Source: Macrostomum hystrix | Lineage: Eukaryota; Animalia; Platyhelminthes | DNA length: 64,000 bases | Direction: 5' to 3' | Assembly (NCBI GenBank): GCA_950097015.1 | Contig: CATNEN010000038.1 | Coordinates: 33,170,001-33,234,000 of the forward strand | In this document: one piece after another, positions 19,625 to 56,200 of the stretch | Position numbering within the stretch: the first letter of the stretch is position 1 | Layout: each line of letters starts with the position of its first letter | The notes under the pieces: generated by a model | What the model saw: the letters and a program-made list of their open reading frames with translations, nothing else | Told to the model about the DNA's origin: nothing | Database searches by the model: none | Position numbers and translations under genes: made by a program

Positions 19625-20138
19625 GAAATGTGGCCGAAAAAGTAGCCAAAAAGTGGCCAAACGCAAGTAGCCTAAAAGTGGCCAAGAGTGTCCCACGTTC
19701 GGCCACTTAAAAAGTGGCCGGAAATGTGGCCACTTAAAAAGTGGCCGGAAATGTGGCCGAACGTGGGACACTCTTGGCCACTTTTAGGCTACTTGCGTTT
19801 GGCCACTTTTCAGCTACTTTTTTACGGCCACATATTTTTTACAGTGTAATGTTGCCGAAAGTGTCCCGCGTAGGGCCACATAAAACGTTGCCGCCTCATG
19901 ACCATCATAATATGCAAAAATATGTGGCCGAAACGTGGCAAAAAAGTGGCCGAACGGGGGTAGACAAAAAGTGGCCGAACGTGTCCCACATAGGGCCACT
20001 ATAAAAGTAGCCGCCTGCACGGCCACTTAAAAAGTGGCCATCCTTATGTGGCCATACGCGGGATACTTTCGGCCACTTTTTGTCTACTTACGTTCGGCCA
20101 CTTTTTTGCCACGTTTTCGGCCACATATTTTTACAGTG
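19625..20138. mobile_element. Two CACTG-type right termini with palindromic GTGGCC subterminal repeats
   Basis: CGGCCACATATTTTT(T)ACAGTG ending at 19846 and 20138; long inverted repeat ~19645-19707 vs ~19754-19816. Confidence 0.65.
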
Positions 20139-21374: not shown

Positions 21375-21620
21375 GACTTTTGTCCGTGCGGAACTTACCA
21401 AGCTAAAAACTGTATTGTAATGTGTGAACATAACAACGCGGTTTTCAATGCGGGAAATACCGCATTGAACTAACCAGATATTTCAATTCATTTATTATAT
21501 CACATGTCAAATATTCAATGCGGTATTTATGTACAACTTTCGTTGCGGTATTTATAATATGACTTTCGATGCGGTTTTTTGATGCAGTTTTCAATGCAGT
21601 ATTTATTTACGACTTTCGTT
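21375..21620 (+). repeat. Dispersed repeat, second copy at ~37958-38250
   Basis: Shared GACTTT.GTCCG.GCGGA...TGTGTGAACA.AACAA...TACCGCATTGAAC...TCAAATATT sequence. Confidence 0.7.
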
Positions 21621-22181
21621 GCCTGTTCCAAGTAGGTCTTGATTTCTTGCTTCAGTGCGAAGCACATTTAAAATATATATTTGCAGCTACATTTCCTGAT
21701 CCATTTTTCATATCATTTTCGACACCAGGTTCTAGCTTTCATGGTATTTTCTGACTGCCAACAAAAACATTTTTAAGTGGTAATACGTATATCCTTTTAT
21801 GCCAAGTCTTGGCACAACTAATGAGATTTTTATAGTCAGTTGGTATTTTGCCCATGCATTTTTATTTCCATTTGTTCTTGTTTTATGTGTTCCTAGTAAG
21901 TCTAGACTTTTTTGCTTCATTGCTAAATGCATTTAAAAATATATATTTGTACCTACAATTCCTACCTATATTTTCTATTTTCTAGGCCCACTTTTGATTT
22001 ACGAGTAATAGTGTTTCACGACAGCTGCGTAAAGACATTTGTAAATCAATTTTCAACATCAGAAACTAATCTTAATGTATATGAATACAACATTTAAACC
22101 TCAAAGATTGAATCAAAATTTCATCGATCAACGTTGTACATAAAATGGCATAAAAACACATTGAAAGTCATGTAAAATATA

Positions 22182-22263
22182 ACACATAGAGTTTAGGGAT
22201 GTATTTATTTAAACCCCGAAGGCCCGAGGGGTTCAAGAAAAATACAACCCTAAACTCTGTGTC
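22182..22263. repeat. ~80-bp imperfect palindrome
   Basis: ACACATAGAGTTTAGGGATGTATTT..AACCCC / GGGGTT..AAATACAACCCTAAACTCTGTGT. Confidence 0.75.
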
Positions 22264-23227: not shown

Positions 23228-23647
23228 ATGAATGCTCATCCTGTGGCGCTGTTCGGCTCGCCGGCCATCGTGGCACTCCTGGCCAGATGCGACATTGCCT
23301 GCCTGGCCCCGTTCCTGGCGCACCGAGGACGACTGGAGCAGCTGACCTGCCTGCAGCGCCACTGCCCGAATGCTGAGCTGAATGCCACCCAGCTACACAC
23401 CTTGCTGAAGAGCCTCCTGGACTGGCTGCTACAACACCAGACAGCTGCGGGCTACGAGACCATCCTGGAGGTGACCTGCCTAACAGAGAACGAGGCTTTC
23501 GACTTGGCCGAGCTGCTAGGCCTGCTGGAGGACACCTGTTCGGAGCTGCAGCACATTCTACACGGGCTGGACTACTGGCGCGGCGTGCAGCAAAGGGCAA
23601 GACTGCGAGAGTTGCTCCGGAGTCGCGAATATCGAATGGAGCAGTAG
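23228..23647 (+). CDS. Hypothetical 139-aa Leu-rich helical protein
   Basis: GC-rich intronless ORF, TATATA at ~23146, AATAAA at 23721. Confidence 0.6.
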   Translation: MNAHPVALFGSPAIVALLARCDIACLAPFLAHRGRLEQLTCLQRHCPNAELNATQLHTLLKSLLDWLLQHQTAAGYETILEVTCLTENEAFDLAELLGLLEDTCSELQHILHGLDYWRGVQQRARLRELLRSREYRMEQ

Positions 23648-23809: not shown

Positions 23810-23950
23810 AGTACAGTTCGTGGTGCGCGCACAATCCCTAAGAAATATATATACAAGACGATTCGATTAGAGCTGCTGCTTATCTACCTAAGAATAGCAG
23901 GCAAGTCCTTATATATTTTTAAGTAATGTGCGCGCACTATGAACTGTACT
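23810..23950. repeat. Imperfect hairpin site A (~41-bp arms)
   Basis: AGTACAGTTCGTGGTGCGCGCACAATCCCTAAGAAATATATA ... TATATATTTTTAAGTAATGTGCGCGCACTATGAACTGTACT. Confidence 0.9.
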
Positions 23951-24259: not shown

Positions 24260-25240
24260 ATGTCGTTCAATTTTTCTACCGGCTGCGACAGCGACGATGA
24301 ACGAATTGCGGCCGCGCTGGACGAGTTTGAGAGAGCTGCCCAAGATAGCAACTCCGCCGGGCCGGTAGCGTCATCAACTCACCAGCCACCATCACAGCGA
24401 AAAAGAAAGAGCGCTCCCTCTCAACGTCGCATTGTCAATGCAGCGGCAGCAGCAGCAGCTGCAGAATCTACGCCAGGCCCAAAGCGGTGCTGCCGTCCAG
24501 TGCAGACAGCAGCGGTGGCTAACATCAGCAGTGACGCCGACGACTTCAGCCTGCTGCCCCTGGCTTCTTGTTGGCCCACCAGCAGATGCGCGCCACGTTG
24601 CTGGGGGTCTTTAGAGATGTGCAGCGCCAGCGCCGGATTCGCAGGGAGCAGCTCGCCGGCTGTTCCGCATGCTCCACCGAGGCTGCCGACAACAGGAACC
24701 TGTGCCCGCTCCGAGAGGCCGTCTGCACAGCCCTTCGCCACCAGTCGGGCGTTGTCTATCTGTATGGGCCGTCGGGAGTCGGCAAGACCACCGCCGTCGA
24801 GCGCCACTTGGACCAGGAGCGCATTAAGCGCATTAAGCGCATTAAACGCATTCTGCCCGGTCATTAAGCGCTTCGGCGGTAATGACTTCATGTTCGACGG
24901 CCTGGACACCGCGCGCCACTCAGTCATCTTTCTGGACGAGGTGCGGCCGCACATGTTCGAGGGCGGCGACCTGGAGACCACGCTGTTGCGCCTGCTGAAC
25001 GGCAACAGCTTCCTGGTCAACGCTAAGCACCAGGCGCATGTCTACCTGGACTGGGGCCAACGGCTGGTAATCATGGCCGGCCACGCCTCACCTGACGATT
25101 TCCCGGCTGACGTGCAGCGGCGCCTGCGCAACGAGGGCAACACATGCGTCGAGGTCGACCACGACATCGAGGCCTGCCAGGGGGGGGTGCCGCCAGCAGC
25201 CGATGTTCGGAGCCGCCGCCGCCGCCAACGCCCAAGTTGA
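24260..25240 (+). pseudogene. SF3 helicase (CRESS Rep / parvovirus NS1-like ATPase) without HUH domain; two compensating frameshifts
   Basis: Walker A VYLYGPSGVGKTT (24766-24789, in the 24568-24867 frame); FDG, Walker B VIFLDE, B' LLRLLNG..VNAK and a motif-C-position VIMAGH in the 24185-25240 frame. Confidence 0.75.
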
Positions 25241-26437
25241 ATAATTGATGAGGCCGCCTAATGTCTGTCTGTCTATTGCAAAATTATTTCACCCCTGCAC
25301 CCGTATTTTGTCTCCACCACCATCTTAAAGCGGGTTAGCAGATGTGGGCATGCAGGCAGAAATAGCTAGACGGCCAAAATATTACATAACAAAATATTAC
25401 ATAGCACAAAATATTAGTCCTTATTGGGCTAAATAAGGAATGGCTTTTGAGTTCGGCTGTTTAACAGCACCATATATAATCTATACGTGGCACACTGTTG
25501 CAGAAAACGGGGTAGCAGAAATGTGCGCGGACTATAGCAATTTATAAAGCATTTGATGGGATTAGTTTAATTGAATAAAATAGCGCGCAGTGTTTTCCTT
25601 ATTCTAGTGTTTTTGTTGCTCGTCAGTCTAGATGTGCTAAGAGATGGAGATGGCATTTATTACTTGTTCTCAGGATCGCTTCTCGCTCTTATCTGATTGC
25701 TTTTATTTTGAGTTCTATTATTTCATAGTCAATATTTTCATTTAGCATATGTCGCAGGCTGTCGACAATTTCAATTGTCCCCATTTTATTCCCGTTCTAC
25801 TTTTTCTGTACCGGCTCCATTAAACTTTTTAATCCCTCACCGCCAACAAATAGTTGTTGTTGTTGCTGTTGCTGCTCTCCAACAAGTTAGATAGATGGGC
25901 AGCTAGAATAATTAACAATGATTGCCTACCTTGTGGAGCGCAGATAAAAATCACTTTAAATGCAGTCGTCGTCGTTGGGGTCGCAGCTGGAGCGGAGCAA
26001 TCGGAACAGTGTAGGGGGCAGTCGAAACGAAACAGTAGATCACGAAGGAGTTGATTTGGTTGATTAATAGAGTTGGGATTGAAAATCAAAGTGTAGCTTG
26101 GGAACGATCGAGTCTGTCTTAATCGATTGGCATAGAGAAATCAATCAGTGCGCGAGCTAGCTCTCTTTGACTTGTGTGCTCAAGATGAGCAATACAGTCC
26201 TTCCTGATAAAATTTAGTTTCTGTTGTGCAGTGTCAAAGCAGCCCGGCCCTAACGGCTTTCTCTCTTCTTCTTCTGTCTATGGTCCCGTTAAGCTAAGCT
26301 TCGCCTCAACTGTTGCACCCCTTTTACCCCCCCCCAAGCTAAACGTAAGAGTGACTACACGGCTTATTCGCACGCGCGGCTTTAACCCAAATACACTCGT
26401 TATATTCGCTATAAGAAGCTTCCTTTGAGTCTTGACA

Positions 26438-27150
26438 ATGGCGTCGCGGCTTGGCGACCTTTTTCTCGGCGATGCCGACCGTGCACTGATGTGGCTCAAG
26501 GCCTTCAATGCTCTGGCCCGCGCCAAGAAGTGGACCGACTCGACCGAATCCCGACAAGTCGCAGACAATTTTTTGGCATCCTGCGGACTGCCTGCTTTGG
26601 AGAAGCTGACTCATCTCGTCGCTCCGAAGGAGATCGACAAGCTGACCTTCCAAGAGATCGAGACAGCCCTGGTGTCCTACTTACAACCTCAGAAGCGCCT
26701 CATTGTCGCCGAAAGAACCGACTTTTTCTCAATTCGTCAGAAAGCTGCTGAGCCGATAGCAGACTATTTAGCTCGCCTGAGGAAAGCAGCAACGCACTGC
26801 GCCTTTGACTCTCTGAAGGACTGCGCCAGTCCCGCAGAGGAGCTGGTGCGGCTTACTCTCATTTCTGGACTGTACAACCCTGAGCATCAACGGCGCATTC
26901 TAGGTGCAATGCAAACCAAGGATCAGACAATCTCGGAGATTGTTGACCTCATTCGAAGTTGTGAACAGATCAACACGTTTGTTCAAACCTGTAACTCGGT
27001 GCCCCCGGTAGGCCCGGCTGGCCCATTGTCGCCGCCAGCCCAACATAATGCGGCCACTGACGAATCGGTGCACTACTCCAAAGGTGGACGGCCAACTTCC
27101 AATGGTCAGCGCATCGAGGGCTGCAAGTACTGTGGCGGATCCCATCACGC
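26438..27150 (+). CDS. Gypsy gag (frameshifted into pol inside the first zinc knuckle)
   Basis: MASRLGDLF..., ERTDFFSIRQKAAEPIADY, CKYCGGSH. Confidence 0.85.
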
Positions 27151-30100
27151 AAGGCAAGTGCCCGGCATATGGCAAGACCTGTTCCAAGTGCTCCAAGCGC
27201 AACCACTTTGCTGCCGTATGCCGCTCCGCTCTGACTAGCAAATCCGTACATCACGCGGATGTTCCATCCGATGCATCGATGACGCCCGAGCCCTCGAAGA
27301 TCCTGCATCTTATGGACGTTGATCTGGTCAACGCAATCGAAGTTGCATCTGAGACACTTCTTGTAGACGGCGCCAAGGTACCAATGCAAGTGGATACCGG
27401 TGCATCCGTCTCCGTGCTTTCTAGCACAATCTGGGAGTCTCTGGGCAGGCCCCCACTGCAAAAGAGTCACCGACGCCTCGAGGCCTACGACGGCCACACC
27501 CTAAAGACTCTCGGCAAGCTGTGCTCTACCGTCGAGATGCGGGGTAGGTTACACCCCGCCGAATTCGTCGTGGTTTCGTCTTTGAAGCCGTTCGGCCTCC
27601 TTGGCCGTGATCTTTTAGATTCCGACTCTCTCTTTCACACCAACTCTCAAGCTCCGAGCCCCACAGTTGCAGCTACAACGCTGCCCACCATCAAGGGCAT
27701 CAAGGCACAGATGGAGCTGGTTGAAGGCGCTCGATCCCAGTTCTGCCGTGCTCGTCCGGTTCCAATCGCACTAGAGAAGCAAGTCAACGCAGAGTTGGAC
27801 CGGCTGCAGCAGCTTGGCATCATCGAGCCTGTGGAGGGTCCTGTGAGCAACGCTTCTCCGGTCGTCTGGATCAAGAAGAAGGACGGGACTTTGCGCATGT
27901 GCGCCGATTACAAGGTCCATGTGAACGACAAAATAAAGCCAGAGTCATACCCTATTCCAAGCATCGAGCACCTCTTTGGCAAGTTAAAGAATGCCAAGAA
28001 GTTTGCCAAGATTGATCTGAGGTCGGCTTACTGGCAGATCGAGCTGGACGAATCCGCCCAAGGCATCTCTATCATCAATACCTCGCGAGGCCTATACCGC
28101 GTCAAACGCCTTCAGATGGGCATGAAAAACGCTTCATTCATTTTTCAACGCACAATGGAGAGCATCCTCTCCGACTTGAAGGGACTACTGATCTATCAAG
28201 ACGACATCATGGTCTATGCTGAGAACGTTGAAGCACTCCAGAAGCGTCTGAAAGCAGTCAAAACGCGCCTGGCCGAAAAAAAGGTAACGGTCAATGAAGA
28301 CAAATGTACAGGCATTTGCGATTCGATTTCATTCCTTGGATTCGAAATTTCTGCCGCTGGAATTCGGCCCGATGATAAGCTCGTGGACAAAGTTCGCCAC
28401 ATCTCGACACCGAAGACCAAGAAGGAGATCGAGCAATTTCTCGGTCTGGTGAATTTCTTCGGCCGCTTGATTCCTGACTATTCCGCCAAGGTCGCCCCAT
28501 TGAACGAACTGCGCAAGGCATCCACGCCGTTTGTCTGGTCTGAAGCATGTGCTCGCGCTTTCGAGAATCTCAAGAAGGAGATCTCATCACGACCAATAGT
28601 ACAACCGTACAGCCTGGAGAAGGAGGTGACCCTCACAACAGATGCCTCTAAAGGAGCGTTGGCAGGCGTTGTTACCCAGGAAGGACGCCCTGTAATCTTT
28701 ATCTCTAGGACACTGTCCAAGGCCGAGACTAACTATTCCAACATTGAACGGGAAGCACTCGCCATCTTCTGGGCCGTCTGTCGCCTGAAACACTACCTCC
28801 AAGGCCGACGATTTACGGTACAGACGGATCATCAGCCTCTTCTACGGCTTTTCGGTGGCAGCATACCAATGAGTTCATCGGCAAGAATCAGTCGCTGGGC
28901 CCTTTACCTGATGCAATTTGACTTTAGCGTGGTCTACGTTCCCGGATCGCGCATTCCGCATGCCGATGCGCTTTCTCGTCTGCCGTTTGATAATGACAGT
29001 CAAGACCCGGCCGATGCATTCGAGGCAATCAACTCAGTTGCCTTTGAATCCCCTACTATCAATCCTCGACGGATCGCTAGCGAACTTGATTCTGATCCAC
29101 TGCTACAGCGCATCATACGTCGCGTACGCAATGGCGACTGGCATAACTGCACACAAGCAGAGGCCGCTTTCAAGAGAAACGCAGCAGCTCTAACAATCGA
29201 GAACGGCCTCCTCTACATGCACCGGCGCGCATTCATACCTCCGCGTCTCCGGAAAGAGGCCTTCGATGCGATTCACGACACTCATAGCGGTACTTCTGCC
29301 AGCTACCACCTCCTGGAGCTGTCCTGCTGGTGGCCCGGCATGCAGCGCGACGTGGAACGATTCGTGCGGCAGTGTGCTGCATGCAGCAGCCTGCGGCCCC
29401 GACTGCAGAAGTCCCGAGATGCTTGGCCACCTGCTGATGCTCCATTTCAGCGCATCCACATGGACTGGGCCTTCGTGCCCGAGGTGGGCAACATTCTCAT
29501 TGTAGTGGATTCCTATTCCGGATGGATTGAAGCCTTTCCATCCCGCGACAGGACGGCAGACAGGGTTATTTGCTCGTTACGTACTGTATTCACGAGATTT
29601 GGAGTCCCAGAGGTGGTGGTCTCCGACAACGGACCGGAATTCACGTCTGATGCCCTGCTGTCCTGGCTGCATGCCAACGGCGCCCGAAAGATGGAAACCC
29701 CTCCCTACTCGCCACAATCTAATGGTGCGGCCGAGCGAGCAGTCCAAACTGTCAAGAGGGCCCTGCAGGCCTGGACACAGAGACTGACCCACTCTGACTT
29801 CATTGCGTTTTTGCAGAAGGTTCTGCTTCACCACCGCAACTCGTCAGGTGCAAGGTCAAAGACACCGGCTGAGCTCGTGTTCGGTCGACGACTTCGCGTA
29901 CCTGTTGTCTCGGCTTTCCAACAAGGTGACCAGGTCGTATACAAGGCCACCGACCACACCCCGTCCCGAGGCGCAGAGTTCCTCATGACCCAAGGGCGCA
30001 ACACATCCTGGTTGCTGACGGACGACAAACTGCGTCTGGCAAGCAACAATCAGATTGCCCCGATGCTTTCACGCACTTCTGAGGACGACGAGGACGAAAG

Positions 30101-30221
30101 TCTGGAGCCGCCGGCAGACATGCCTCCCAATGAAACCCCGACACCACCGGCTCCGGTAGCAGATCAAGTTCCGCGCAGGGGTGACCGAAATCGGCGACAG
30201 CCAGACCGATACACACCCTGA
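27151..30221 (+). CDS. Gypsy pol: protease, RT, RNase H, integrase
   Basis: VDTGAS, YQDD, TDASK..TDHQPL, H-H-C-C zinc motif, HMDW, SDNGPEF, SNGAAER. Confidence 0.95.
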
Positions 30222-30935
30222 CACTGTGACGGTTGATATGTTGCCCTCCCGATAAGACTAACATAGCCACAAAAAATAGCCACATGCGCTCGTTGTTTTG
30301 TTTCATTTGACTGGAGGGAGACATGTTGTGCAGTGTCAAAGCAGCCCGGCCCTAACGGCTTTCTCTCTTCTTCTTCTGTCTATGGTCCCGTTAAGCTAAG
30401 CTTTCTATGTGCCTAACCTTTGTCTATGTCTTGAGTTTATCGCATTCCTTTATTAATAGTAGTCTAAAAATAATTTTACACACAGGCAGTTGTTATTTGC
30501 TTATTTGGGCGCTAATTATGTTATTTAACTTATAATAATTGAGCTATAATAATTTGAGTAAGTATACTAGTATATGGTATGAAAAGCTGACTGCATGCAT
30601 TAATATGTGAATAAAGGACATAAATCAAGAAAAAGCATTCGATCAAGAACTACATGTAGTAGACGGTACGTATGCATATGAAAAATCGGCAATTAACTAA
30701 TTTAAGATGAAAATCAACAAGCGGCATCTGCAATAACAAGCAATTAAAATACATGTAGTAATGATGTGTGCATTAAAATACAATTTGGATAGACGCAAAA
30801 AGCTATACATATAATATAGTAGTACGATTTAATAACGGCAATTAACAGCTGCATATAGTGCTACTCAGTTATTTATAGATTTTATATAAGAAACTAAAAT
30901 TTCAAATTCGCGCTAAATTCTACGAAATTCAATGT

Positions 30936-31051
30936 GTACAGTCTGTAGTGCGCGCACATTCCCTAAAAATATATAAGGCATGTCTGCTCTAATTTTAGAA
31001 CGACGATCCTTATATATTTTTTTAGTATTGTGCGCGCACTATGAACTGTAC
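30936..31051. repeat. Imperfect hairpin site B
   Basis: GTACAGTCTGTAGTGCGCGCACATTCCCTAAAAATATATAAGG ... CCTTATATATTTTTTTAGTATTGTGCGCGCACTATGAACTGTAC; homologous to site A with a different loop. Confidence 0.9.
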
Positions 31052-31253: not shown

Positions 31254-31291
31254 AGCGTATAAAGCGCGCACATGTGCGCGCTTTATACGCT
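31254..31291. repeat. Perfect 38-bp palindrome
   Basis: AGCGTATAAAGCGCGCACA|TGTGCGCGCTTTATACGCT. Confidence 0.95.
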
Positions 31292-31540: not shown

Positions 31541-34373
31541 TTAATGTTCCGCCACTGAGTGCAGCCGCCGTCGCTTTCCGGCCACCGGTCTATCGTGCAG
31601 GACTGCGTCGGCTCGTTGGGTGCTCGCCGCCATCTCACCACTTCCACCAGCCAGGCTGCTGATGAGTCCCTGGGTCGGCGGCCTAACTATCGGTGGCATC
31701 TGCTCGACATCTGATGGCACCACAAATCGGCGGACAATGTCGCGGCTGCGAATCACCGCGCCCATCTCCGTGGCCATCTGCGCGTTGTGACCATAGTTGA
31801 ACCGGATGACAGCTGCAGATGTGCCGTGCGCTCTGGCGAAGACATCTAGCTGCTCCGGCTCCATCATGAGCACTACGGCACAGAGGGTGCGACGCCAGTG
31901 CGTGGCCACATAGTGCCGACCCAGTACTCGCTGCCCGCCTGCGCTGATCATGCGGCTCATTGCCGACTGGCTGTACACGCCGCCGAACACATCTATGAAG
32001 ACCGTCGGCGACTCCGGTTGCTCGATGCCGCGAGCAGCAAGCGACGGCACGATGTATTCGTCGTGCAGGCGCAGCAAGGCCTCACAGAATAGATCCGGCA
32101 GCACCATCCTGGCTGGGTCGCCGGAGTGTCTGACCTTGTGCGGCACTTCACGCAGCGGCAGGACGAGGTGTGAGTGCCCAGCCAGATCGGCAGCGGACGG
32201 CGCGCTCTCCCCATCTGCACTTTGCGTGTGTTGGCGGAACAGCTGTTTTTGGTCGGCCGACGCGTTCCGACGAACCGACCGATCAACCAAGTGTCGCCGG
32301 CGGATGTAGATCCAAGGCAGGAGTCGCAGGGGCTGCTCAATGCTGCAGAAAAACAGCATTTCCTGCACAATCCTCCGCAGACAAACCATCCGGCGACTGA
32401 AGGCACCATCATCTACCGCATCCTCCCTGATGGTGATGCTATCTGCAACGGCTGCCTGCATGCACCACTCGCCGTCTACGGGCAGCGAAGTCCAGCTGTG
32501 CCTTTGTAGCATGGCAAAAAAACGATCACGGCGGGCGAACACGGCATCGACCTCGTCCACGTTGACGTAGGTGTCCATGAAGGCCACCTGCCGCTCGTTG
32601 TGGCCAAGCTTGTAGACTGCCTGCATATAGTATAAATGTGGTTGCGTTTACTTATAGTAGATAGCAGCACGAAACCAAATAGAACTAACTGTCATTAATG
32701 CAGCTGCTGTGCAGCTAGCTCACCTGCTGGATGGCGCGGACGTTGCCGAACTCGCCGCGAGCCTGCTGCACCACGCTGCTAAGGCGGGCGATGAGAGCCT
32801 GCTCAGCCGCCAGCGGGTTGTTGGCCTTCTGCGCCAACTGCAGTCTCCAGCAGACGCCACTGCCGACAGAGTCGACGTCCTCAATCGCAGGGCGCTCGGT
32901 GTCAGGCGAGGGTGAGTCGATGCTGCAGAACAGCTCGGCTTCGCGCAAGCCAACGGCGGCCATGATGGCATTGGCGCCTCGCAGGCCCCTCACGCGCAGC
33001 CAGCCCTCCATGCAGCGGCAGATGCTGACAAGCTCCTGGCACTTGCGCGCAGCAGTCGACTGGGCCAGCTGCATGGCATCACTGACTGTTTCAGCGCTGA
33101 AGCAGTCCTGCACCCTGTCCGGCTGAAGCAGCAGGTCTGCAAGCGATATGCCCGCTCGCTGCCAGGTGCGTAGAAGCGTCGAGCTCACGGACCTGCTGAT
33201 GTCGCGCCAACGCTGCTGGTGGCACAAGTTGGCCGCAATCCTGGCCCGCGATGGGTCCCTCCACCATAGCTCCCGCAGGCGTTCCACCGTTGCGGAGATG
33301 CTGGGCCGGTCACCCAACGGCTGCAGCAGCTCTGGTGGCACGGGCTTCGCAGGTGGCGACGTGCGAAAGTGTCGACAGCGCGGACCGCGACGCTGTTGCT
33401 GCTGCTTCTGATCGGCTGTCGACGCTTCCTGCTGCAGTTCTGCTCCGAAGATGGACAATCGAAGCCGGTCGAATTCGGCATTAGCCAGCCTTCTCTTTGC
33501 AGCAGTCCACTTTGCTGCAGCTGCTCGACGCTGCCTCGGCGGGGTAGCTGCCAGCTTCACTAGCGGCCTCTGTGCAGCTGACAGCACAGCCGATGACGTG
33601 CTGGGACGACAAAGTGCTGCCTTGGTGGCCTGCACCGCCAACTGCAGACAGGCAGCCGAAGAGGAAGACTCTGCTGCCACCGTCTGGACCGTCGGCAGCG
33701 TCCGCATTCTGATGCTGGTTCCGGGCAGCAGCTCCTGCAAGCCGACATCGTCATCTCCATCATCGTCATCGTCAGCGACTACGGGGGCCTCCTGTGAGGA
33801 CATCAGCAGCAGCGGCGCAGTCGGGTCAAATAGGCGTCGCCGGACGGCTGGACGGCTGGCTGACGACAGCCGAGCACTGGCCGCTGACTGTCGACCGTCA
33901 ACGGATGGCGCGGCGATGCTGTAGAGCTCGGCCAACAGAGACCCAGCCTCGTATTCAGCTGGTTCTGCCTCTGAAGGCTGCTGCGGAGGCGGTGGTGGCA
34001 TCTGCTGCGGAGGCTGTGGCTGCTGGTGTTCCACAGCAACGGTAGCGACAATAGCTGGCACTGCTGGACACCTGTGCTGCCTTGCTGTCCTACGCAGCAC
34101 CTTGCCGCAGGCTGGGCACGCGTGTACATGCTCAGTGTTGGCTGAGCTGCGCGTGTGGGTGCTGCACGTCAGGCAGAGCCAGACCATCTGGGCACGCTGC
34201 TTGGCTGACGCCGCTGCCCAAGATGCCTCGGACGGCCGCACCTTGACTGGGGCATCCTCGAGTCGGAATTGGCGCACAGCCTCCTCCGCGTGCCTCCTCA
34301 GGAAGTGGCGTTTCGGGTGCGTCTGCGGTCTGCCGTCGCCACAGAAGATGCAACACGACTCGTTGTCTGTCAT
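31541..34373 (-). CDS. Two-exon zinc-finger tyrosine recombinase, ~909 aa (exons 34373-32724 and 32620-31541)
   Basis: Phase-0 GTGAG...ATGCAG intron 32723-32621 joins the two ORFs in frame (IQQ|AVYK). Exon 2 has QPLR, PHK, THWRR, AHGTS and FNY in R-K-HxxR-H-Y order. Exon 1 has CIFC..H..H, CLTC and CPAC..HRC clusters. Confidence 0.75.
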
Positions 34374-34456: not shown

Positions 34457-34558
34457 GTACAGTCCGTTGTGCGTACATCTAAATAAATATATATATGCCC
34501 CTATATCCCATTGTGGAATACACTATTTTAAGTGTTGTGCGCGCACATTGTTCCGTAC
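34457..34558. repeat. Degenerate hairpin site C, upstream of the recombinase
   Basis: GTACAGTCCGTTGTGCGTACATCTAAATAAATATATAT ... TATTTTAAGTGTTGTGCGCGCACATTGTTCCGTAC. Confidence 0.7.
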
Positions 34559-35354
34559 TGTTGTCATCGCTGCTGCATTTATATTCGATTGAGTGCTGCG
34601 TTGAGCACAGAAATCACTTATTTTTATGTTGTCCCTAACAACAACAACAACAACAACATCCCGGCTGTAAAAATTATAAGCCTCTGAATCATTTATAAAT
34701 TTTAAAAACATAATTTTTCATTTGCAATGTAGTACAATCAGCTCAGACATTCGATTTTCCAGTGAACAGCACACCCACCCCCTCCAACTCGATCTTCCTC
34801 CCTCAAAAGCAGTGCCGAGCCAGCCAGCCAGACCTGTAGATGGAAAGAGAGACGACTTCGATCGTCTTCAGTCTATGGCCACAGGGGTGACATTATCGAT
34901 TGGTTAAAGCAGACACACTGCTTCTCTTTTTCAAGGCAGAGCAGTGGCCTTCCACACCCTTTTACCATAGACTATGAATTTAGAGACAGGGCCGTCCCCT
35001 TTCGCTTTCGAAGGTTTAAAGAAAGGGTGGCAAGCAAAGTAGCAGTCTTTTAGTTTTAGCCCGACCCAACTGCTCGATCGAACTGCAGCTTACAGTCAAA
35101 TATAATTCAGAGATCCATCCACAATTCGAATCAACAGTCAGCCTTCTATTTGCTTGGACAAAGTTAAAACTGGCTACAGATATTATACCGACAGAGAGCC
35201 ACAGGATCTATTATTATGTCAACAGCGAGCATTAGGATCTAATATATTTCTACGCAGCTCAGAACTGCATTACAATTACTGAGATTACTAATATATTATA
35301 ATTATAGAGAACTGCATGCGCTATTAACTATTATATTTACAGACCGATTGTTAT

Positions 35355-35513: not shown

Positions 35514-36522
35514 TAACCCAGCTTGTAATTCATATTTATGAGCAGAGACTTACACGGCCTATTTTAAATACAGAGCCTTTTTCTTATTTGCAGCGCATCT
35601 TCACTCTCCAGCAGCAGCATAAGCAGCACCAGCAGTAGCGTCAGAAGCATCAGCAGAATCAGCAGAAGCAGCAGCCAGCAGCATCAGCAGCATCAGCAGA
35701 ATCTGCAGAAGCAGAAGCAGCAGCCAGCAGCATCAATAGCCGCAGCCAGCCCCGTCCGCCTGTGCCCACTTCGAGGTGAGATAAATATTCAATTGTACAG
35801 CTGGATAGCATTAGTTAGCCTCTGCGAAATATAATCGAGTAGACTTTAGCATAGAAATTATATTCGAATTGCCTTTCCATGTTTTTTGCTTGTCGTCGCT
35901 GCCGCCGCCAGTCAAAATTAAATCAAATTATTGAATGTCATAAGACATAGAGTCTGTGTCAATCAGTGTCAATCAGTCAGTCAATCGATCTCGAACGAAA
36001 CAATACATTCAGTATACTGTACACTGCTGCTGCTCTAATGCAATATCAATAACGAGAGAAAAAGAGTGCTTGCGAGCAAAGCCATAGAGGAAGCGTGGTC
36101 TTCCCAGTTCTAAAAATAGCTGCAGAGCTAGCGCGTGAATTTAAATACGCGTGAATTTAAATACACTGTTTACGTTGTTATAAACGAGAGAAGATGAAAG
36201 TGATTTTAGGAAGGCCTTTATGTTCATTTTTTGTCTTAATCTGACTTCCGAATAAATAAATCTAAATAGTAAGCTAAATGGAGCAGAACTGAACTGCTGC
36301 GCACTGAAATATAAGCGCTATACGAAAATTGCTATGTTTGCGTTTCAATGAGGCCCAAATGGCTCTCCGAAAAGACCGAATAATGAGTCGAAAAAAGCTG
36401 GGCAAAAATCTGAAAATTAGGAAAGTATAGGGACATATTTTATAAAGACAGACATAAGACAGATAAATAGCAGCAAGCCTAACTGAAACAAATTTAACAC
36501 TATAGTTTACATCCCTTAACTA

Positions 36523-37530
36523 ATGGCAGAACGAAGACTTATTTTAAACCTGTTGGTTGATTATTCTAAAAAATACGTTGGAGACTATGATCCAAATAAG
36601 CTTATGGTGGACGATTTAGACCTAGTGCTGGACGCTGGTGAAGATTTGCGAAACCCTTACACATTGCAAGAGGTGCGGTCATCGCGTGAAGAACCTGGTC
36701 CATCAATGCTGCCCAAGGACTTGACTCTCGATATGTTTTGATCAGTTAATGAGTCGACAAAGCCTGCCAATACCGCCAATCGGAACAAGTGGTCCGCTGG
36801 CGTCTTTGATTGGTGGCGCTCTGGCCGTTACAACGATTCTATTCGTGCTGTGCAAGAACTTAGTGATGAGCTAAACGAATTCCTTCCTGTTTTCATTCAT
36901 GAAGTGACCTGTGCCGATGGGACTCAATATCCGCCAAACACACTTGTGTCAATTGTTGCTGGTCTGCAACAAACTATCTGCAAGGTGAGTAAAGTTGATT
37001 TCTTTCGCAGTGAGTGATTCAGCATTGTGCGTGAAAGTCTGGACGCCCCATGAAGATTGGGATAAGAAATGGCTTAGGACTAGCCAGGAAATCTGCTGAA
37101 GTTGTTGGCTATGAAGATCGGGAGAAACTTTGGGAGAAAGTGTTGGGCGACAAAGATCTTACGAGTCTGATCAGAGCTTTGTTTTATCTCAACGGCTTGC
37201 ATTTTGCTCTACGTGGCGTTCAGGAACATAGTGCCCTGTGTATTTCGCAATTCAATGTGCAAGAGCAAGAGGGACAGAAATTTATTGTTTACATAAAGAT
37301 GACCACGAAGACGAATGCTGGTAGATTGCGCGACACTCGCTTCAAACGAAAGGAAGTTCTTCACTTCGCCAATACAGCCAATCCGGAACGTTGTCATGTT
37401 CGGCTTTTCAAGCTTTTTAAGAAATCCAGGCCTAGCCAGAGTAATAGATTTTACCTTCTGCCGCTGAAGCAACCATCAGAGAAGCAATGGTACTCGAATC
37501 GTCCAATTGGCGAAAACACCCTGACAAAAT
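36523..37530 (+). pseudogene. Crypton (DUF3504-type) tyrosine recombinase, N-terminal part
   Basis: PANT..NKWS, FIHEV..DGTQYPPNTL, FALRG, KTNAG, NPERCHV, WYSNRPIGENTL; contains stops and frameshifts. Confidence 0.85.
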
Positions 37531-38481
37531 TAAAGAGTACAATACTTTTTCTAAAAACTAAAATTGTCATTGTCATTTGTCAACATAGCTAACATCAGAA
37601 ATAACATTTTCATTTTCTATTCCTTTAAATTCTGAAAGACATTGACCTGTTTTGATCAATCCAGGCTTTCTCTGGATTGATCCTATATGCCATCTAACTT
37701 GAACTTACTAATGTCGCACGTGTTAGGTTTAATGTCGATTGGCCTTCACATTGGCCTTTAGTTTAACTCTTTTAAATATCAATGAAAGGAATTTGCTCTG
37801 AAATAAAATATATGTTTTCTTTAATTACAATGCAATATAACACAAATGTCATTTTTAGTGCGTTCTACTGATTGACTTTTGTTTCTTCGATTATACTTCC
37901 CTGAATATCGATCGATCGGAATATCTGTCGGCGAAAGTAAAAAAGGTGCATGTATGTGACTTTCGTCCGCGCGGATTCTATTGCGGTAAAAACCGCATTG
38001 TGATGTGTGAACACAACAATGGGGTTTTCAATGAGGTTTTTATGAGGGAATTACCGCATTGAACCAACTATATGTATTTTAATTCAGTTAATATATCACA
38101 TATCAAATATTAAATTCATTATTTATATACAACTTCTGATGCGGTATTTAAAATGTAAGACTTTTAATGCAGTTTTCGATGTGGTTTTCAATGCAGTATT
38201 TATGTACAACTTTTGATGCTTTTTTGGATGGGGTATTTATATATGACTTTATGCTCTATTTATATTTAAATCCCTGCGAAGGTCTTTTCCAGGATGTATT
38301 TTTACCTGATAAAACAAACACCGAACTAGAATTCGTATTTTTCGAGTTTTATATTTTATAGTTCATTCTGGATGTCAAAAAACGAGACTATGCATATAAC
38401 TAAAAAAGAAAATTTGCAGGTCTTTTTAGTGCGTAGATCAGTTTTTAGTTATTAACAGTTGGGTTCATAGCATGCATGTAA

Positions 38482-38795
38482 TCAATTTTTGATGATGAAT
38501 GAGCAGTTATTAAAACTGAAATTCAGCTGACGCTCACAGCAGACGCTAGCTACATCTGTCTCAGCCTTGCGTAGTATTCTAGTGTCCAATACAGCGCAGG
38601 AATTGGCGATTTGAATGTCGGACGTCCGCTTGTACGTGCGGACTCCAGCCAAACTTCGGTGACCTGTTCGTTCCATTATTTGCTGTTCTTCAACGCCAGC
38701 TTGGTAAAGACGTGTAGCACATGTAGCGCATAGACTATGATTAGTCTTGTGGCCAGAAATCTCGGCTTCAGTGCACATTTCATGCATAAACTTTG
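38482..38795 (-). pseudogene. Crypton tyrosine recombinase, C-terminal catalytic part (inverted)
   Basis: TNHSLCAT (HSLR with R>C), IMERTGHRS..VRTYKR. Confidence 0.85.
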
Positions 38796-39789
38796 TATAT
38801 ATACGAGTACAAAGATATGGCCCTTGCCTTATAACTTTTAAATATGGTTTGGCAATTGGCAGTGCTTATTGTCAGGGTACCATGCCAGTAACTTTGTTTA
38901 ATACACTCTAATCTTGTTTTAATTATTAGAGATTCAAAAAACAATGTTGTTGTAGGCCCCTTAGCCTAAAACATAATAGTTCCTAGTCCTAGGCCTAGTT
39001 CCTAGGACTACTTTTAAATTTATTATCTTCATCTTATTGTTCTATGGTCTAGTTGACTAATGCTAGGCCAATGCTAGACATATCTATAAATTAGCTAGAC
39101 AAGATAGGCTTAAGCTATTTTTATAATATGTTAGAGTAGCTAGCTATATATATTCTTTTATTTGATTTCTCTAAGTAGGGCCTAATGTAGACACAATATT
39201 ATTGAAAAGAAGAAAAAATTAAATTGCATATAGGTGTATTTCTTTTTCATTTGTTAAGTTGATAGCTAGCTATATAGTTAACCTCATAAATATAATGGGT
39301 TACAATTGCGTTTGTCATATACTCATTACTAGTTCAACATCAAAATTATTATTACCTAGCTATTGAGTATTGTATTAATTAGCTAGCATGTTCCAGTTCA
39401 GAGTTTTGCATATTATTAAAGGTTATTTATAGCTTTTAAAATAAAATTTCAAATTTGAAGCTATATATACAAACAGCTAGCCCTAAATAGAATGAATCTA
39501 TAATAAATAAAGCTTTTTACAAAAATAATTGTCTAATCCTTTTAGTTTTGTCATTTATAAAATTTGAGTTCTAAACAACCATTACTATCATTTACTATTT
39601 ACGTCGTACAATTATAGATTAAAGAACAATATTTATTGTTATAAATTTGCCGATTTAACAAATTGCTTCTATTGCATACATTTTATTACTTTTCTAAAAC
39701 AATTGTCTCTTACAATTTATAGTAATAAGACCAGTTGCAGTTGAAGTAGAAATATATGTTTATATATATCTTATATTTTTATTTTTTGT

Positions 39790-49883: not shown

Positions 49884-50261
49884 TGGCAAATTAATTGTCT
49901 TAATGGATGCCACCTGCTACTTTCAGTAACAGTCAGTGTGCTAAGTAACCTTTTTTTCTTTTGTATGTTTCACGTATGTTTCACGTTTTTAAGCTGAATG
50001 CTAAATGAGATTATCGCTTACATTTGCGATTGGCTGCTGCATTCAATACAGAAATTTCTGTATTGACAGGGTACAGTTTGTACAGGTACAAAGGCGAATG
50101 TACAAATCAGGAGTACATATGCAACAGATATTGATTTAAAGGTATGAGAGCTGCATGGTTTGTTTCTTCAAATTTATTCACCCATCGCTTTGTCTATAAA
50201 AAGCATTTCGTATATCTGAACACTTTTATCGGATTTTTGTCTTCATTGTCTAAGCAAAGTA

Positions 50262-53200
50262 ATGCCTAAGCGCAAGAGCTTTCTCCAAAAGAGCCGCCAA
50301 GCGAAGCAGCATCGCCGTGCTGAAACAGACGATGAAAGAGAAGAGCGTCTTCGGAAGAATCGTGAGTATGCACGTAGGCGTCGAGAGGAGGAAAATGAAT
50401 CGAGTCGAGTGGCTCGTCTTCATGATGACAGGCATCGCACTGCCGAGCGACGCGCTGCTGAATCGTCACCTGAAAGACTGTCTCGTCTTCATGATGACAG
50501 GCATCGCACTGCCGAGCGACGCGCTGCTGAATCGTCACCTGAAAGACTGTCTCGTCTTCATGATGACAGGCATCGCACTGCCGAGCGACGCGCTGCTGAA
50601 TCGTCACCTGAAAGACTGTCTCGTCTTCATGATGACAGGCATCGCACTGCCGAGCGACGCGCTGCTGAATCGTCACCTGAAAGACTGTCTCGTCTTCATG
50701 ATGACAGGCATCGCACTGCCGAGCGACGCGCTGCTGAATCGTCACCTGAAAGACTGTCTCGTCTTCATGATGACAGGCAGCGCACTGCCGAGCGACGCGC
50801 TGCTGAATCATCACCTGAAAGACTGTCTCGTCTTCATGATGACAGGCAGCGCACTGCCGAGCGACGCGCTGCTGAATCATCACCTGAAAGACTGTCTCGT
50901 CTTCATGATGACAGGCATCGCACTGCCGAGCGACGCGCTGCTGAATCGTCACCTGAAAGACTGTCTCGTCTTCATGATGACAGGCATCGCACTGCCGAGC
51001 GACGCGCTGCTGAATCGTCACCTGAAAGACTGTCTCGTCTTCATGATGACAGGCATCGCACTGCCGAGCGACGCGCTGCTGAATCGTCACCTGAAAGACA
51101 AAGCCGGTTGGCAGACCTTAGAACTCGAGATTCTAACAACCGAGCTAATGAGTCCCTTGCTGCAAGAGATAAGCGGTTAGAAAAGGCCAGAACACGGGAC
51201 GCTGAGCGACGACTAAACGAATCTTTAGGCGTCAGGGACAATCGGCTTAAAAATTCGAAAAGTCGAACCGCTGAACGAAGGGCATCTGAATCTGCATCAG
51301 AACGCCAATCTCGCTTGGATCGCATGCGGATTTCCAGTGTAACTCGGCGAACGCACGTAGATTCACCCAGCAGCTTGTGAGTAAAAAAGGCTATGAGAAA
51401 TAACAAACGCTGTTTAGATGGGGGCTTTTAATTAAAACTTTAGGTACATACTTGCTCCTGATATTCCTACTTACAGTAGTCACACAGGGGGTGTCGGTGT
51501 TGCGAATCTGTGAGGCTTTGAACTGCGAGCTGTGAACGGGAAACGCATTGAAGGCGGGACATGCACACGCAAATAAAGAATTAGTATAATGGATATCGAT
51601 CAACGAATATAATTTGTATTTGAATTTGGCAATAGGTATACTCTCCAACATCGATTCTCGCTTGCCTGATATCCACGCAATTCTATGTGTAATTATATAT
51701 TTTGTAATGCCTTCAAAATTATATCTTTTCCCATCCGATTGAAAGTGTAGTTAAATATCGATTGTATTAAAAAATCCTGCTTCTTTATATTCCCAACTAC
51801 AGGCCTCTCGTCACAAGCCACGCTTCACCAACGCGATCGTTGCTAAACTTTGCTGTGCATAATGTACCTGGTGACGGCGACTGCTTCTTTCACGCCGTCT
51901 GTGACCAACTTAAAAATACGGAGCTGAGCACAGATGCTTTCACCTTGCGACAGGAGCTCACTCGTCGCGCACAGCCTTATTTACTGAATTTAGAAGCAAG
52001 CGGATTTATTGTGCAAGGTTCAAGTGCTTCACTTTTGAGAGCTTCAGGCTCGCAAGGAGTTGCAGTCCCCGATGAAATAGTACCGCTTCTAAGTCAATGC
52101 TTCAATATAGACGTTACTATTTTTCAAATTGATGGACGCGTACTGCAGCATTTCACATCGCCAGTTCATCCGCCAGTCTCTGTTGTGCGGTTGCTGTTGC
52201 ACAATGAGCACTACCAGTCGCTGCGAAATTCCTTGCCAGATTCGCAAAGGTCTGCGCAGGACATCGGATCCGCTTCTGCAAGTGAGAGCTCCGTGATGAG
52301 TCCAGTCAAGAAGCGCCGGCTGCCTGCTGCTTTGCCTCCAACTTTGCCTCCAACTGCAGGACAGCATCGCGACAACACTGACGGGCCTACCTTGAGTTGC
52401 GAATCTTTTGTTGACATTGAGAAATCGAGAGCTGCTGATGAAACTTTGACTAGGGATTCAACTTGCACTGAACAATCTGTGTAAGTGTGCCGACTATTAT
52501 ATATGAATAACATTTACAACTGCAATGGTTATAATGCAGAAAAATCCATCAGCACAGAAACTTTTGATGCACATTCAATTCTTCCTTTGGTGATGCTGTG
52601 TGGATGGTTTATGGCTAAATCTACTACCTGTAGTACTTGATCGCAGCTTGAAAAAATTATCTTAATTCCATGAACGTCCGGTAACGGCGACTCAAAGATT
52701 AATGCTTATTCGATTGCAGATCAGCGGAGGCGGCAACGCATTCGGCTGGTCGGATGGAATACCCATGCACAATGTGCGGCGCTCTGCGTTGGAAGCTGGA
52801 GGTGGCCGGACTCTGCTGCACTGGTGGACAGGTGAAGCTGGAGCAGCGGCGCATACCAGAGGAGCTGCGACGGCTCTATCAGGGCCAGCATGAAAAAAGC
52901 CGGCTCTTTTTAAATAACATCCGGAGGTTCAATGCAGCACTACACATGACATCTTTTGGTGTTAACAAGCGTGATCTTCCTCTAGGCTCAATGAATTTGA
53001 TCATCAATGGACAAATCCATCACAAAATTGGCAGCCTTCTTCCTATTGAGGGCAGGACGGCACAATTTTGCCAGATTTTCTTCTGTGACTCTGAACTGGA
53101 TACACGAATGGCAATGGTGAACGGTTTAGATCGAAACATTCTAGAGCTGCTGCAGAACATGCTGCATCGGGAAAATTCGTATGTACGCAGCTTTAAAGCT

Positions 53201-56200
53201 GCCATCGAGCGAATCACAGAGAATCCCGATCTGCAGAGTGCATCTTTGGTTATCCGGGCAGATAGGAGACCCACTGGCGAGCATGTGAGGTAAGTTGGGT
53301 TTACTTTAAACTGATTTAAGCACTGAATGATGATATTTGAGCTTAGTTTTCTTTTTTAGAGAAATTTTCAGAAAGGGAGTTGTTCTTTTAATTAGGCTTA
53401 AAACTTTGTTATAGACGGCACATCGGCCAAACCACACTAGATTATTCTTTTTCGAAACACGGTAACTGGAATATGTTATGTACTATTTATAGTAATATAT
53501 GAGGAATCAATTAATAAGAGACAAGAAACATAACTGTCTGTGACAAAGACTTGTTGAAGACGGAAATCAAAATCACACATTGAGTTCTCAGTTAGTTGAA
53601 GAATAAATATGTCCTTTTTAAAACTGGTTGATTAGATTTTAATTAGACTGAATGAATGTCTACTTTATCAATTTCCTAGGCGATTCAACCTACCAAGTGT
53701 TAGTGAAGTCGCAGTGTTGTTTGACGCATTGGAGGACGATACCGAAGGTGCTGCAGGCAAGCGGGATGTCATTGTGCATCTGCGATCGGGCAGGATACAA
53801 CGCATTGACGAGACACACCGCTCCTACGACCCATTGGAGTATGTACTCTTTCACCCATGCGGAGAAGATGGCTGGCACATTGGTCTGACGATGGCTAACA
53901 ATCGCAAGCTGACACCCAGAGCAATGTACTCACATCAGCTCATGATTCGTCCCGGCGTCTTCAATGCCCTTCACTACGGCAAGCGGCTCTTCCAACAATA
54001 TATTGTCGATCAGGCAGCAAAGATAGAAGCTGAGCGACTAAATTATTTGAAGACGCACCAAAATGACCTCCGCTCTGAGACTTACAGCGGCCTGAAAGAT
54101 GCGCTGGTTGCCTCCGATGTTGACCCAGATTGGGCCAGCAAAGTCGGGAACCGTGTCATACTGACCTCCAGCTTTGTCGGCGGTCCGCGCTATCGGAGGG
54201 AGCGTCAACAGGACGCCATGGCATATGTGCAGCGCTTCGGAAGGCCGGATTTTTTCATAACAATGACTGCGAATCCTGCATGGGAAGAAATCACACAGGA
54301 GCTGCTGCCTGGACAAAGCCCGGTTGATAGACCAGACCTCACAATGCGCGTCTTTGACTTAAAGCGAAAGGCTCTGCTGGATTGCCTACGGACTGCTTTC
54401 GGCACTCCGGTCGCACATGTCTGCTCGCTTGAGTTTCAGAAACGAGGTGAGTTTATATTTAGTTTATGCAAGAACTACAAACACTATCGACCACCAGCGA
54501 AGTATTGTCAGCCTGTCTCTGTCAGCCTGTCTCTGTCAGCCTGTCTCTGTCAGCCTGTCTCTGTCAGCCTGCCTCTTTAGGCCCTTGATTCACTTTATTC
54601 TGACTACATTTCTTCTACTAGCTGAGCATGTTGTGTTGTGAGATGCGATTATTCAGATAAAGTAGGATTCGTTCAATTCGTAAATTTCAATTTATTTATT
54701 TTTACTACTCTCTGTGAGATTTTTTCAGTCGACTTATCAAGATTAAAATTCGCGACTTTCGCAACGATCTCTCTGCAGGTCTGCCACATGTTCATATACT
54801 TCTGTGGCTGGCACAGATGGATAAGATCACACCTGACCGCTACGATGATGTCGTGTGCGCGGAAATCCCGAGCGCTGTCGATGATCCGGAGCTGCACAAG
54901 CTGGTTGTTGATAACATGATGCATGGACCATGTGGTGAAATAAACCCGCGATGTGTTTGCATGATAAACGGAGCTTGCAGCAAAAAATTCCCAAAGGACT
55001 ACCAACTTGCGTCCGTTGTGAACGACTCGGGATTCCAATTTTATCGTCGGAGATCTGCAACAATGGGAGGTCACGTAGCCAAGAAGTATCTGCGAGGCAA
55101 GGAAGTGATCATGGACAACAGGTAAATACTCATTTTGGAATTATAGAAAAAGTTAGCAAAAATTGACATGTACAAATTAGACTTTCTTTAAAAATACATC
55201 ATCTGGGATTTAATATGCCTTGCACTGATTTAAAACTTCGGTTCGAGAGGCGTTTTAGAGGATTCATTTTAATGTAGCAGTAATGATGAAAATTTTCATG
55301 TACAACAAACTACTTTTTTTCTTTCCATCTATGCAGTTTAATTTGTGTGGTACAGGACTTCGATTTAAATTACCAGTATTAGATGTATCTAATCCTCATT
55401 TAGTAACAATGCTTTGCTTTATATTTATCGTTGAAGAGAAAGAGTAATTGTTGATTGAAGTGAAAATGTATCTGATATTCATAGTGATAATTACTAATAC
55501 TTACTTTACTTTTGCTCTTACTTTTTAGATTCGTTGTCCCCTACAATGCGCACCTGTTGCGCCTATTTCGGTGCCACTTAAACGTCGAGATTTGCGCGAC
55601 CGTAAGGGCAATTAAATATGTAGTTAAATATCTCCACAAGGGATCCGATATGGCAACTGTTGAGCTGACTACGGAGCAGCGTGAAGAAATAAAGTGGAAT
55701 GAAATCGCTGCTTACCTGTTAACTCGGTATCTGGGCCCACATGAAGGTGTTCAAATAATTCTCGGAATGAGCGTTCATAGCCGCTATCCGCCTGTTGTTC
55801 AGTTGTGCGTCCATCTCCCTGGTAAAAACCGAGTTATCTTTTCTGCGGCAACAGCTGAAATGCAAGCATCAAGACCACCTCGCAGCATGCTAACAGCGTT
55901 TTTTGAACTTTGTCGCAGAGATGATTTCGCCCGCACTCTGTTGTACACAGATGTTCCGCGATACTATATCTGGCAAGCTGACCGAAAGGAATGGCAGAGG
56001 ACCAAGATTGGAGCACCTGTGGATGGCTACGATGGCGTTCGTCAGCGAGATACCATTGGCCGCATGTACAATGTCAGCCCGAGAGCTCGAGATGAATTTT
56101 ATCTACGACTAGCCTTGCTACGTATTCGGGGACCGGTCAGCTATGAATCTCTGCGAACAGTAGACGGAATTCTGTACACTGATTTCTTTGAGGCTTGCAA

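Follow-up and report, generated by a model that had tools for sequence, protein, structure and literature searches.

Which kind of gene lies at positions 31541–34373 of the window, the 64,000-nucleotide stretch of Macrostomum hystrix DNA analysed here (contig CATNEN010000038.1, positions 33,170,001–33,234,000), and is it part of a mobile element? A sequence-only reading of this locus had proposed a two-exon gene for a divergent and possibly active tyrosine recombinase (YR) with N-terminal zinc fingers. With a probability of about 0.62, the encoded 909-residue protein is the likely recombinase of an undescribed, multi-copy family of eukaryotic DNA elements mobilised in a Crypton-like manner. 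The window itself is eukaryotic and packed with transposons, among which Pfam matches identify Tc1, Gypsy, Crypton pieces, and Helitron.

The two-exon YR gene is real and lies on the reverse strand. Exon 1 (32724–34373, residues 1–550) is an open frame from an ATG, and exon 2 (31541–32620, residues 551–909) encodes the catalytic domain followed by a basic tail that resembles a nuclear localisation signal; both have a G+C content at third codon positions (GC3) of 0.71. As had been claimed, the two open reading frames (ORFs) join in frame across a 103-bp GT-AG intron of phase 0 (32621–32723), giving 909 residues with no internal stops. The splice-site letters are CAG/GTGAGC ... ATATGCAG/G (slashes mark the exon boundaries), and the intron has 40% G+C, against 70% and 59% for its two 103-base flanks. 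Four in-frame acceptors are possible for this donor, the first and three later ones. The first is favoured because the tyrosine of the motif AVYKL, directly behind it and lost with any later acceptor, is kept in the relatives P0003, P0008, and P0012. P0003 is colinear with residues 389–680 of the window protein, exon junction included (pairwise E 6e-29), and P0004 and P0008 also span the junction. In addition, a 266-nt contig from X1, a sequencing run taken as RNA by guess only, connects 32617 to 32724 and approximately bridges the intron (one of the six X1 records placed on the gene); parts of the gene without X1 cover are uninformative, and among the runs listed as matching the gene none is recorded as RNA. 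The Macrostomum lignano gene models P0004 and P0009–P0013 differ by a 10-residue block at the position of the window intron, a difference in the predicted sequences that may mark a splice junction at the corresponding position of the flatworm genes.

The protein begins with a zinc-finger-like region (residues 8–102; 34068–34352, reverse strand) that carries one C2H2-like and one C2HC-like motif, C8-x2-C-x11-H-x4-H and C86-x2-C-x10-H-x-C. Both match P0012 (pairwise E 1e-4) and bear out the proposed N-terminal fingers, with zinc binding presumed; neither matches the Pfam zinc-finger families. A low-complexity linker follows (about residues 103–349; 33327–34067, reverse strand), for which P0012 has a counterpart of similar length that cannot be aligned. 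The conserved stretch that precedes the catalytic domain (about residues 350–550; 32724–33326, reverse strand) aligns to P0003 and P0004 and is a putative core-binding (SAM-like) domain; its matches in ESM Atlas, at just 0.81–0.85, are graded as a lead. P0012 (1084 residues) has the same plan throughout, from the zinc-finger-like N-terminus through the long linker and conserved middle stretch to the catalytic domain. Basic clusters stand behind the catalytic domain in the window protein, P0001, P0002, P0005, and P0012, and are presumably nuclear signals.

A phmmer search of 1.84 billion representative proteins returned eight relatives at E ≤0.001 that are 30–37% identical to the window protein: four from JGI/IMG, one from Logan, one ENA fragment, and two M. 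lignano clusters. Between them, the flatworm clusters comprise seven near-identical gene models, including P0012, with labels such as ‘Ras-GEF’ or ‘C2H2-type’, and the flatworm M. lignano is the only named source of relatives (23–31% identity). The family profile found two M. lignano proteins and no others in a word-indexed protein search, and word-indexed searches with exon 2, at near and longer lengths, returned nothing. The YR exons had no noteworthy match in Pfam, PHROGs, NCBIfam, PDB sequences, or phage sequences searched by tblastn. Searches of viral and metagenome contigs with exon 2, P0001, P0012, or a piece of the nucleoside triphosphatase (NTPase) gene described below found no related locus, and the family profile did not match three phage records, an uninformative control. 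No description of the family was found in the literature, in a search that had Repbase and subscription journals outside its reach.

Three independent fold tests support a tyrosine-recombinase (lambda-integrase-type) fold for the C-terminal half, as judged from models and profiles. In ESM Atlas, exon 2 scored 0.96 and 0.95 to Phage_integrase clusters (family present on 17% and 79% of members) and also 0.96 to an unnamed eukaryotic cluster, and the ten best family-bearing matches all belonged to the Phage_integrase family or clan. The eight-row alignment A2, composed of exon 2, six of the eight phmmer hits, and P0012, which stands in for its two near-duplicates, yielded an AlphaFold2 model with a predicted local distance difference test score (pLDDT) of 74 and a predicted template modelling score of 0.73; folding of the single sequence, with no alignment, gave a pLDDT of 31. 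The ten best Foldseek matches of the model in PDB were all YRs (best E 4.7e-3), and the best match in BFVD, a collection of viral structures, was an integrase (E 9e-4). VIA-align placed YR, topoisomerase IB, protelomerase, or Ndc10 folds at all ranks from 1 to 28, with XerH at the top (Z 11.0, root-mean-square deviation 3.6 over 190 residues). HHalign of A2 against nine phage integrases scored 31.5 (E 8e-4), and column shuffles scored 9–14 in all 15 cases. Structure prediction thus produced the fold that the sequence-only reading had anticipated. The best structural matches, XerH/XerA and phage integrases (PDB 5jjv, 5hxy, and 3nkh; Z 10.4–11.0), have Arg, Lys, Arg, and Tyr in register with the window protein; unlike them, it has Thr for both His and is the product of a eukaryotic gene with zinc fingers, and identity is 9–13%.

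The same HHalign comparison pairs THWRRT with HDLRHT and HGTS...NYG with LGHS...RYA. This pairing identifies R793 as Arg-II and Y826 as the predicted nucleophile, and puts Thr at both His-II (T790) and His/Trp-III (T817). Box II (T790-H791-W792-R793; 31892–31903, this and the following positions on the reverse strand) aligns to H-D-L-R of phage integrases. T817 (31820–31822), aligned to the GH histidine, is Thr in all five relatives, and Y826 (31793–31795), aligned to the integrase Tyr, is likewise Tyr in five of five. The register of Arg-I and Lys is looser than that of Arg-II and Tyr: R649 (Arg-I; 32324–32326) is Arg in three of the four relatives covering the position, and K712 (32135–32137), the likely catalytic Lys, is Lys in three of three and lies near the integrase Lys region in HHalign, its exact register being loose. 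The sequence-only reading had assigned the set R-K-HxxR-H-Y; Arg, Lys, Arg, and Tyr are the residues kept in relatives. Both histidines had been misassigned: R793 is kept in all five relatives, none of which has His at 790 or 791, and H815 of the motif AHG is His in none of the five covering it. The HWRR and AHG registers are rejected on the relatives together with the alignment to phage integrases. R794 is also kept in five of five, at the usual distance from Tyr, and a register one residue later, with R794 as Arg-II, is conceivable; it would restore no conserved His. As aligned, the family keeps Arg-Lys-Arg-Tyr with Thr at both His positions.

Recombinase activity is plausible because R649, K712, R793, and Y826 are kept and the same four positions, Arg, Lys, Arg, and Tyr, are the least replaceable in Cre (PMC2943603, accessible part). 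According to the same portion of that source, Tyr and Lys alone are strictly required in Cre, and tolerance extends to one change at each Arg and to all but five substitutions at His-II (PMC2943603). The fold tests support the divergent recombinase that had been suggested, and its activity is a prediction.

A domesticated YR-fold DNA-binding protein, catalytically weak or dead in the manner of phage MrpR/YopR or of the DUF3504 genes derived from Cryptons (ZMYM, QRICH1), could also show three deviations among the seven usual active-site positions, as seen here (Glu/Asp-I is Pro, His-II is Thr, and His/Trp-III is Thr). Zinc fingers joined to a YR fold recall the ZMYM/WOC plan (PMC3212892, as far as its available text goes), VIA-align matches include MrpR (Z 8.2) and Ndc10 (Z 5.4), and a QRICH1-family cluster is a weak lead for residues 330–550 (Atlas 0.81). 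However, the DUF3504 genes are described in the available text of that work as lacking Tyr and Arg-II (PMC3212892), and here both are kept in five of five relatives at about 30% identity. Decayed copies exist as well, and the protein gave no DUF3504 match. We consider domestication improbable.

A perfect 38-bp palindrome (31254–31291, unstranded), the longest perfect one in the window, is located 250 bp from the YR stop. If it were the substrate of the protein, the enzyme could be a protelomerase-like resolvase of hairpin telomeres or a nicking enzyme of topoisomerase IB type, and the arrangement would recall phage N15, in which telN lies 165 bp from a 56-bp inverted repeat. The ResT/TelK cluster scored 0.92 in Atlas (rank 25), topoisomerase IB folds reached Z 8.3–9.4, and topoisomerase IB enzymes lack His-II. 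However, TelN gave no profile match (single sequence, probability 0.13%), TelK and TelA reached just Z 6.1 and 5.1 compared with 11.0 for XerH, the spacing from Arg-II to His-III is 24 and thus integrase-like, and eight shorter perfect palindromes (16–28 bp) occur elsewhere in the window. Such a function is very improbable, and a recombinase of the integrase type is preferred.

The recombinase gene also appears to have diverged copies. Over exon 2, X1 contigs match it at 100%, about 98%, and 88% identity, the last with a stop codon at R649. They carry 28 differences, 17 of which were listed and classed; 10 of these 17 are synonymous, compared with 25–30% expected (p 0.003–0.013). This pattern, read from the contig sequences, fits a coding family with decayed copies. 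Diverged and decayed copies, the multiplicity in M. lignano, and the transposon-packed surroundings point to a mobile element.

Among known elements, Cryptons (CryptonF, S, A, and I) offer the nearest mode of mobilisation, with a eukaryotic intron-bearing YR gene, no reverse transcriptase (RT), multiple copies, and presumed excision as a circle (PMC3212892, from the part available). Unlike Cryptons, the window YR has no DUF3504 or Phage_integrase Pfam match, both of which are given by Crypton pieces 2–4 kb away. It has R-K-T-R-T-Y where Cryptons have an R-H-R-Y tetrad, and it adds N-terminal zinc fingers, a long linker, and possibly an NTPase partner. No counterpart was located here to the 4–6-bp terminal direct repeats of Cryptons, which have no terminal inverted repeats. 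Kinship with the neighbouring Crypton was rejected at HHalign probabilities of 0.5% and 0.1% (against 37035–37592 and 38482–38865), in agreement with the dissimilarity reported earlier. That Crypton-like gene lies in pieces at 36520–38865, with a DUF3504 part on the forward strand (37035–37592), a Phage_integrase part on the reverse strand (38482–38865), and between them a repeat (37958–38219) that is 77% like 21375–21622; the arrangement suggests an inversion or two copies.

An element of DIRS, Ngaro, or VIPER type was also rejected. The adjoining gag-pol belongs to a forward-strand Gypsy long terminal repeat retrotransposon (26222–30403; gag, protease, RT, RNase H, and rve) that encodes an rve integrase and shows two identical terminal repeats of 80 bp with a TTTC-like target duplication. 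The earlier statement that the gene is not DIRS-like holds; an RT does lie 2–4 kb away, as part of this separate Gypsy with its own DDE integrase. The Gypsy is a recent, separate insertion outside the proposed element. Its gag (269 aa) and pol (1069 aa) are open in overlapping frames, and its 3' terminal repeat does not end in CA.

The locus might instead be the remnant of an endogenous DNA virus, either the end module of a Polinton-like virus (PLV) or an integrase locus of nimavirus type. Nimaviral (majanivirus, whispovirus) YRs and related decapod YR-like proteins have the closest domain plan: majaniviral YRs combine C2H2 zinc, SAM-like, and YR domains (PMC10871703, accessible portion), an order that the window protein would share through its zinc motifs, its putative SAM-like domain, and its YR domain. 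They retain five of the seven key residues compared with four in the window YR, and some are multi-exon, including two from whispoviruses, as is the two-exon gene here (PMC10871703). This likeness was established by description, not by sequence, and a possible kinship could lower the novelty of the family. Unlike nimaviral YRs, the window YR has no nimaviral genes or telomere-repeat arrays nearby; the window contains scattered single telomere-like words only, and no Rfam match that could mark a 28S insertion site turned up at 21–40 kb. Nimaviral YRs were not named among the matches in the 1.84-billion-protein search nor among the BFVD fold matches shown, which include virophage and giant-virus YRs with weak E-values.

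The locus differs from a PLV end module in that no capsid, packaging ATPase, or primase was found, the window YR is intron-split and three times longer than most, and the neighbouring NTPase resembles SF3 helicases by eye only. The likeness lies in a YR beside a P-loop NTPase gene with inverted repeats (PMC11296320 and PMC4642659), and PLV end modules group YR, primase-helicase, and inverted repeats (PMC11296320), as described in the available parts of these papers. However, neither the 33 ORFs scanned nor the flank ORFs of at least 45 aa read by eye included a gene for a capsid, packaging ATPase, polymerase, or primase, or any other nimaviral gene. No further PLV candidate ORF was seen at 21.7–36.6 kb, and divergent capsids can escape Pfam. 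Viral contigs contained no relative, no viral YR was named among the results of the full phmmer search, and the NTPase reached no significant score with a D5/P4-type SF3 profile. A viral remnant is quite unlikely on this evidence, and a non-viral element of Crypton-like mobility is the preferred reading.

How far such an element extends beyond the recombinase gene is a matter of its neighbours. The sequence-only reading was incomplete in this respect as well as on relatives, which exist: the element may also take in genes and repeats next to the YR gene. Two forward-strand genes are candidate members. ORF139 (23228–23647; 139 aa) has a 96%-identical X1 contig and no noteworthy Pfam or NCBIfam match. 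The P-loop NTPase gene (24260–25240) is frame-broken, with Walker A in another frame than Walker B; a 9-bp tandem repeat (3.9 copies, 24818–24852) lies between the two motifs, near the frame break. The NTPase presumably resembles SF3 helicases, as judged by eye from the motif pattern. Against a six-sequence D5/P4 SF3 profile it reached an HHalign E of 0.07 over 37 columns and was not significant in hmmsearch, and its pieces gave generic P-loop or chance matches only in PDB, phage, and plasmid sequences. With the Gypsy subtracted, about 2.1 kb separate the end of the NTPase gene from the YR stop, and ORF139 lies further left. A shared element is favoured by the similar GC3 of the three genes (ORF139 0.76, NTPase core 0.79–0.83, and both YR exons 0.71, compared with 0.26–0.67 in ten ORFs of other window transposons), by diverged X1 contigs found for all three, and by palindromic units A–C limited to the same region. 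Among the listed X1 differences, four of five (of 8) are synonymous in ORF139 and four of six (of 11) in the NTPase gene. We put the membership of ORF139 and the NTPase gene in the element at about even odds.

The three units are related palindromic repeats without assigned strand, and the 38-bp palindrome has a core, GCGCGCACA, common to all of them. Unit A (140 bp, 23811–23950; hairpin z −7) lies between ORF139 and the NTPase gene. Unit B (116 bp, 30936–31051; hairpin z −9 to −11), either a miniature inverted-repeat transposable element (MITE) or a recombination site, lies 3' of the YR gene, and unit C (103 bp, 34457–34559), which is decayed and lies 84 bp 5' of the YR start, does not fold better than shuffled sequences. 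The three copies in 64 kb form one cluster, confined to 23.8–34.6 kb of the window (clustering p about 0.03, post hoc), and have arms of about 40 bp ending in TA-CAGT...ACTG-TA. They did not match the terminal repeats of the Tc1 element at 10038–11626, and the palindrome pattern had no exact match in viral and metagenome contigs. A weak fourth look-alike of the palindromic core (nhmmer E 1.6; 25490–25600), 3' of the NTPase gene, forms no stable hairpin.

Several results weigh against the preferred reading of this locus. At the junction, the 266-nt X1 contig has two letters where the predicted product has three, one nucleotide off, and it contains a second, unexplained skip of 292 nt with non-canonical ends. 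The mismatch and the second skip mean that this contig supports removal of the intron, not the exact acceptor. The skipped stretch corresponds to 32240–32531 of exon 2, Arg-I included, and other contigs keep it. The AlphaFold2 model is based on eight partial rows, and Foldseek had no match in PDB at E 0.001. In the active site, the family has Pro rather than Glu/Asp three residues after Arg-I, and Thr is absent from the Trp-III substitutions named active in Cre in the accessible part of that study (PMC2943603). Redundancy in the assembly could account for the seven near-identical models of M. lignano. The 64-kb window revealed neither element ends nor a target duplication or an empty site, and no genomic context was returned for any relative from viral and metagenome contigs. 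As for the neighbours, GC3 is 0.53 in the N-terminal part of the NTPase and reaches 0.67 in the Tc1 ORF, which makes codon style weak evidence of linkage. The ends TA-CAGT...ACTG-TA are the usual signature of Tc1/mariner MITEs, and other MITE-like foldback repeats, unrelated to units A–C, occur at 19628–20135, 22184–22262, 59188–59215, and 60685–60760. Given these ends and repeats, the units may be unrelated insertions, and MITEs are slightly ahead of element-specific sites as their explanation.

By analogy with Cryptons and phage integrases, the preferred element of Crypton-like mobility could work as follows, the Crypton mobilisation model (PMC3212892, in its available part) being the source of the scheme. 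The spliced YR protein would enter the nucleus, where its core-binding and catalytic domains would bind short inverted sites at the element ends and its zinc fingers may contribute to recognition of arm sites or the target site. Tyr826 would make the 3'-phosphotyrosine link, and two rounds of strand exchange would excise the element as a circle and insert it elsewhere, without an RNA step. The NTPase and ORF139, if members, could supply a replication or strand-handling step, and a recent Gypsy insertion would have split the element. In a bolder version, ORF139, the NTPase, and the YR would form one capsid-less, self-mobilising element of about 7 kb, the 103–140-bp hairpin sites would bracket its genes and be used by its own YR as attC is by integron integrases, and the R-K-T-R-T-Y site would work without either His; this we regard as unlikely.

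Other features of the window lie outside the proposed element. A Tc1-type element (10038–11626) encodes a DDE transposase in an open frame of 358 aa and has terminal inverted repeats of 154 bp. A Helitron (50220–61375) combines an STPR repeat array (69-bp unit, 10 copies, 99% identical), an OTU-like protease, a Rep/PIF1 helicase, and an RPA OB domain. A CAG-rich low-complexity stretch (35590–35780) has very high X1 contig depth, probably from cross-mapping.

Overall, the window YR is assessed as a new variant, at the family level, of eukaryotic YR elements. Animals and other eukaryotes have few known kinds of tyrosine-recombinase element. Since Pfam, PHROGs, and NCBIfam all miss the family, and the labels of its flatworm members are wrong, it is probably absent from repeat libraries. 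A natural YR that has Arg-Lys-Arg-Tyr with Thr at both His positions offers a direct test of the residues that the chemistry needs, and genome engineering might gain a tool in a nuclear recombinase that is of eukaryotic origin and guided by zinc fingers. If the NTPase gene and the hairpin units do belong with the recombinase, the locus would represent a new mobile-element architecture.

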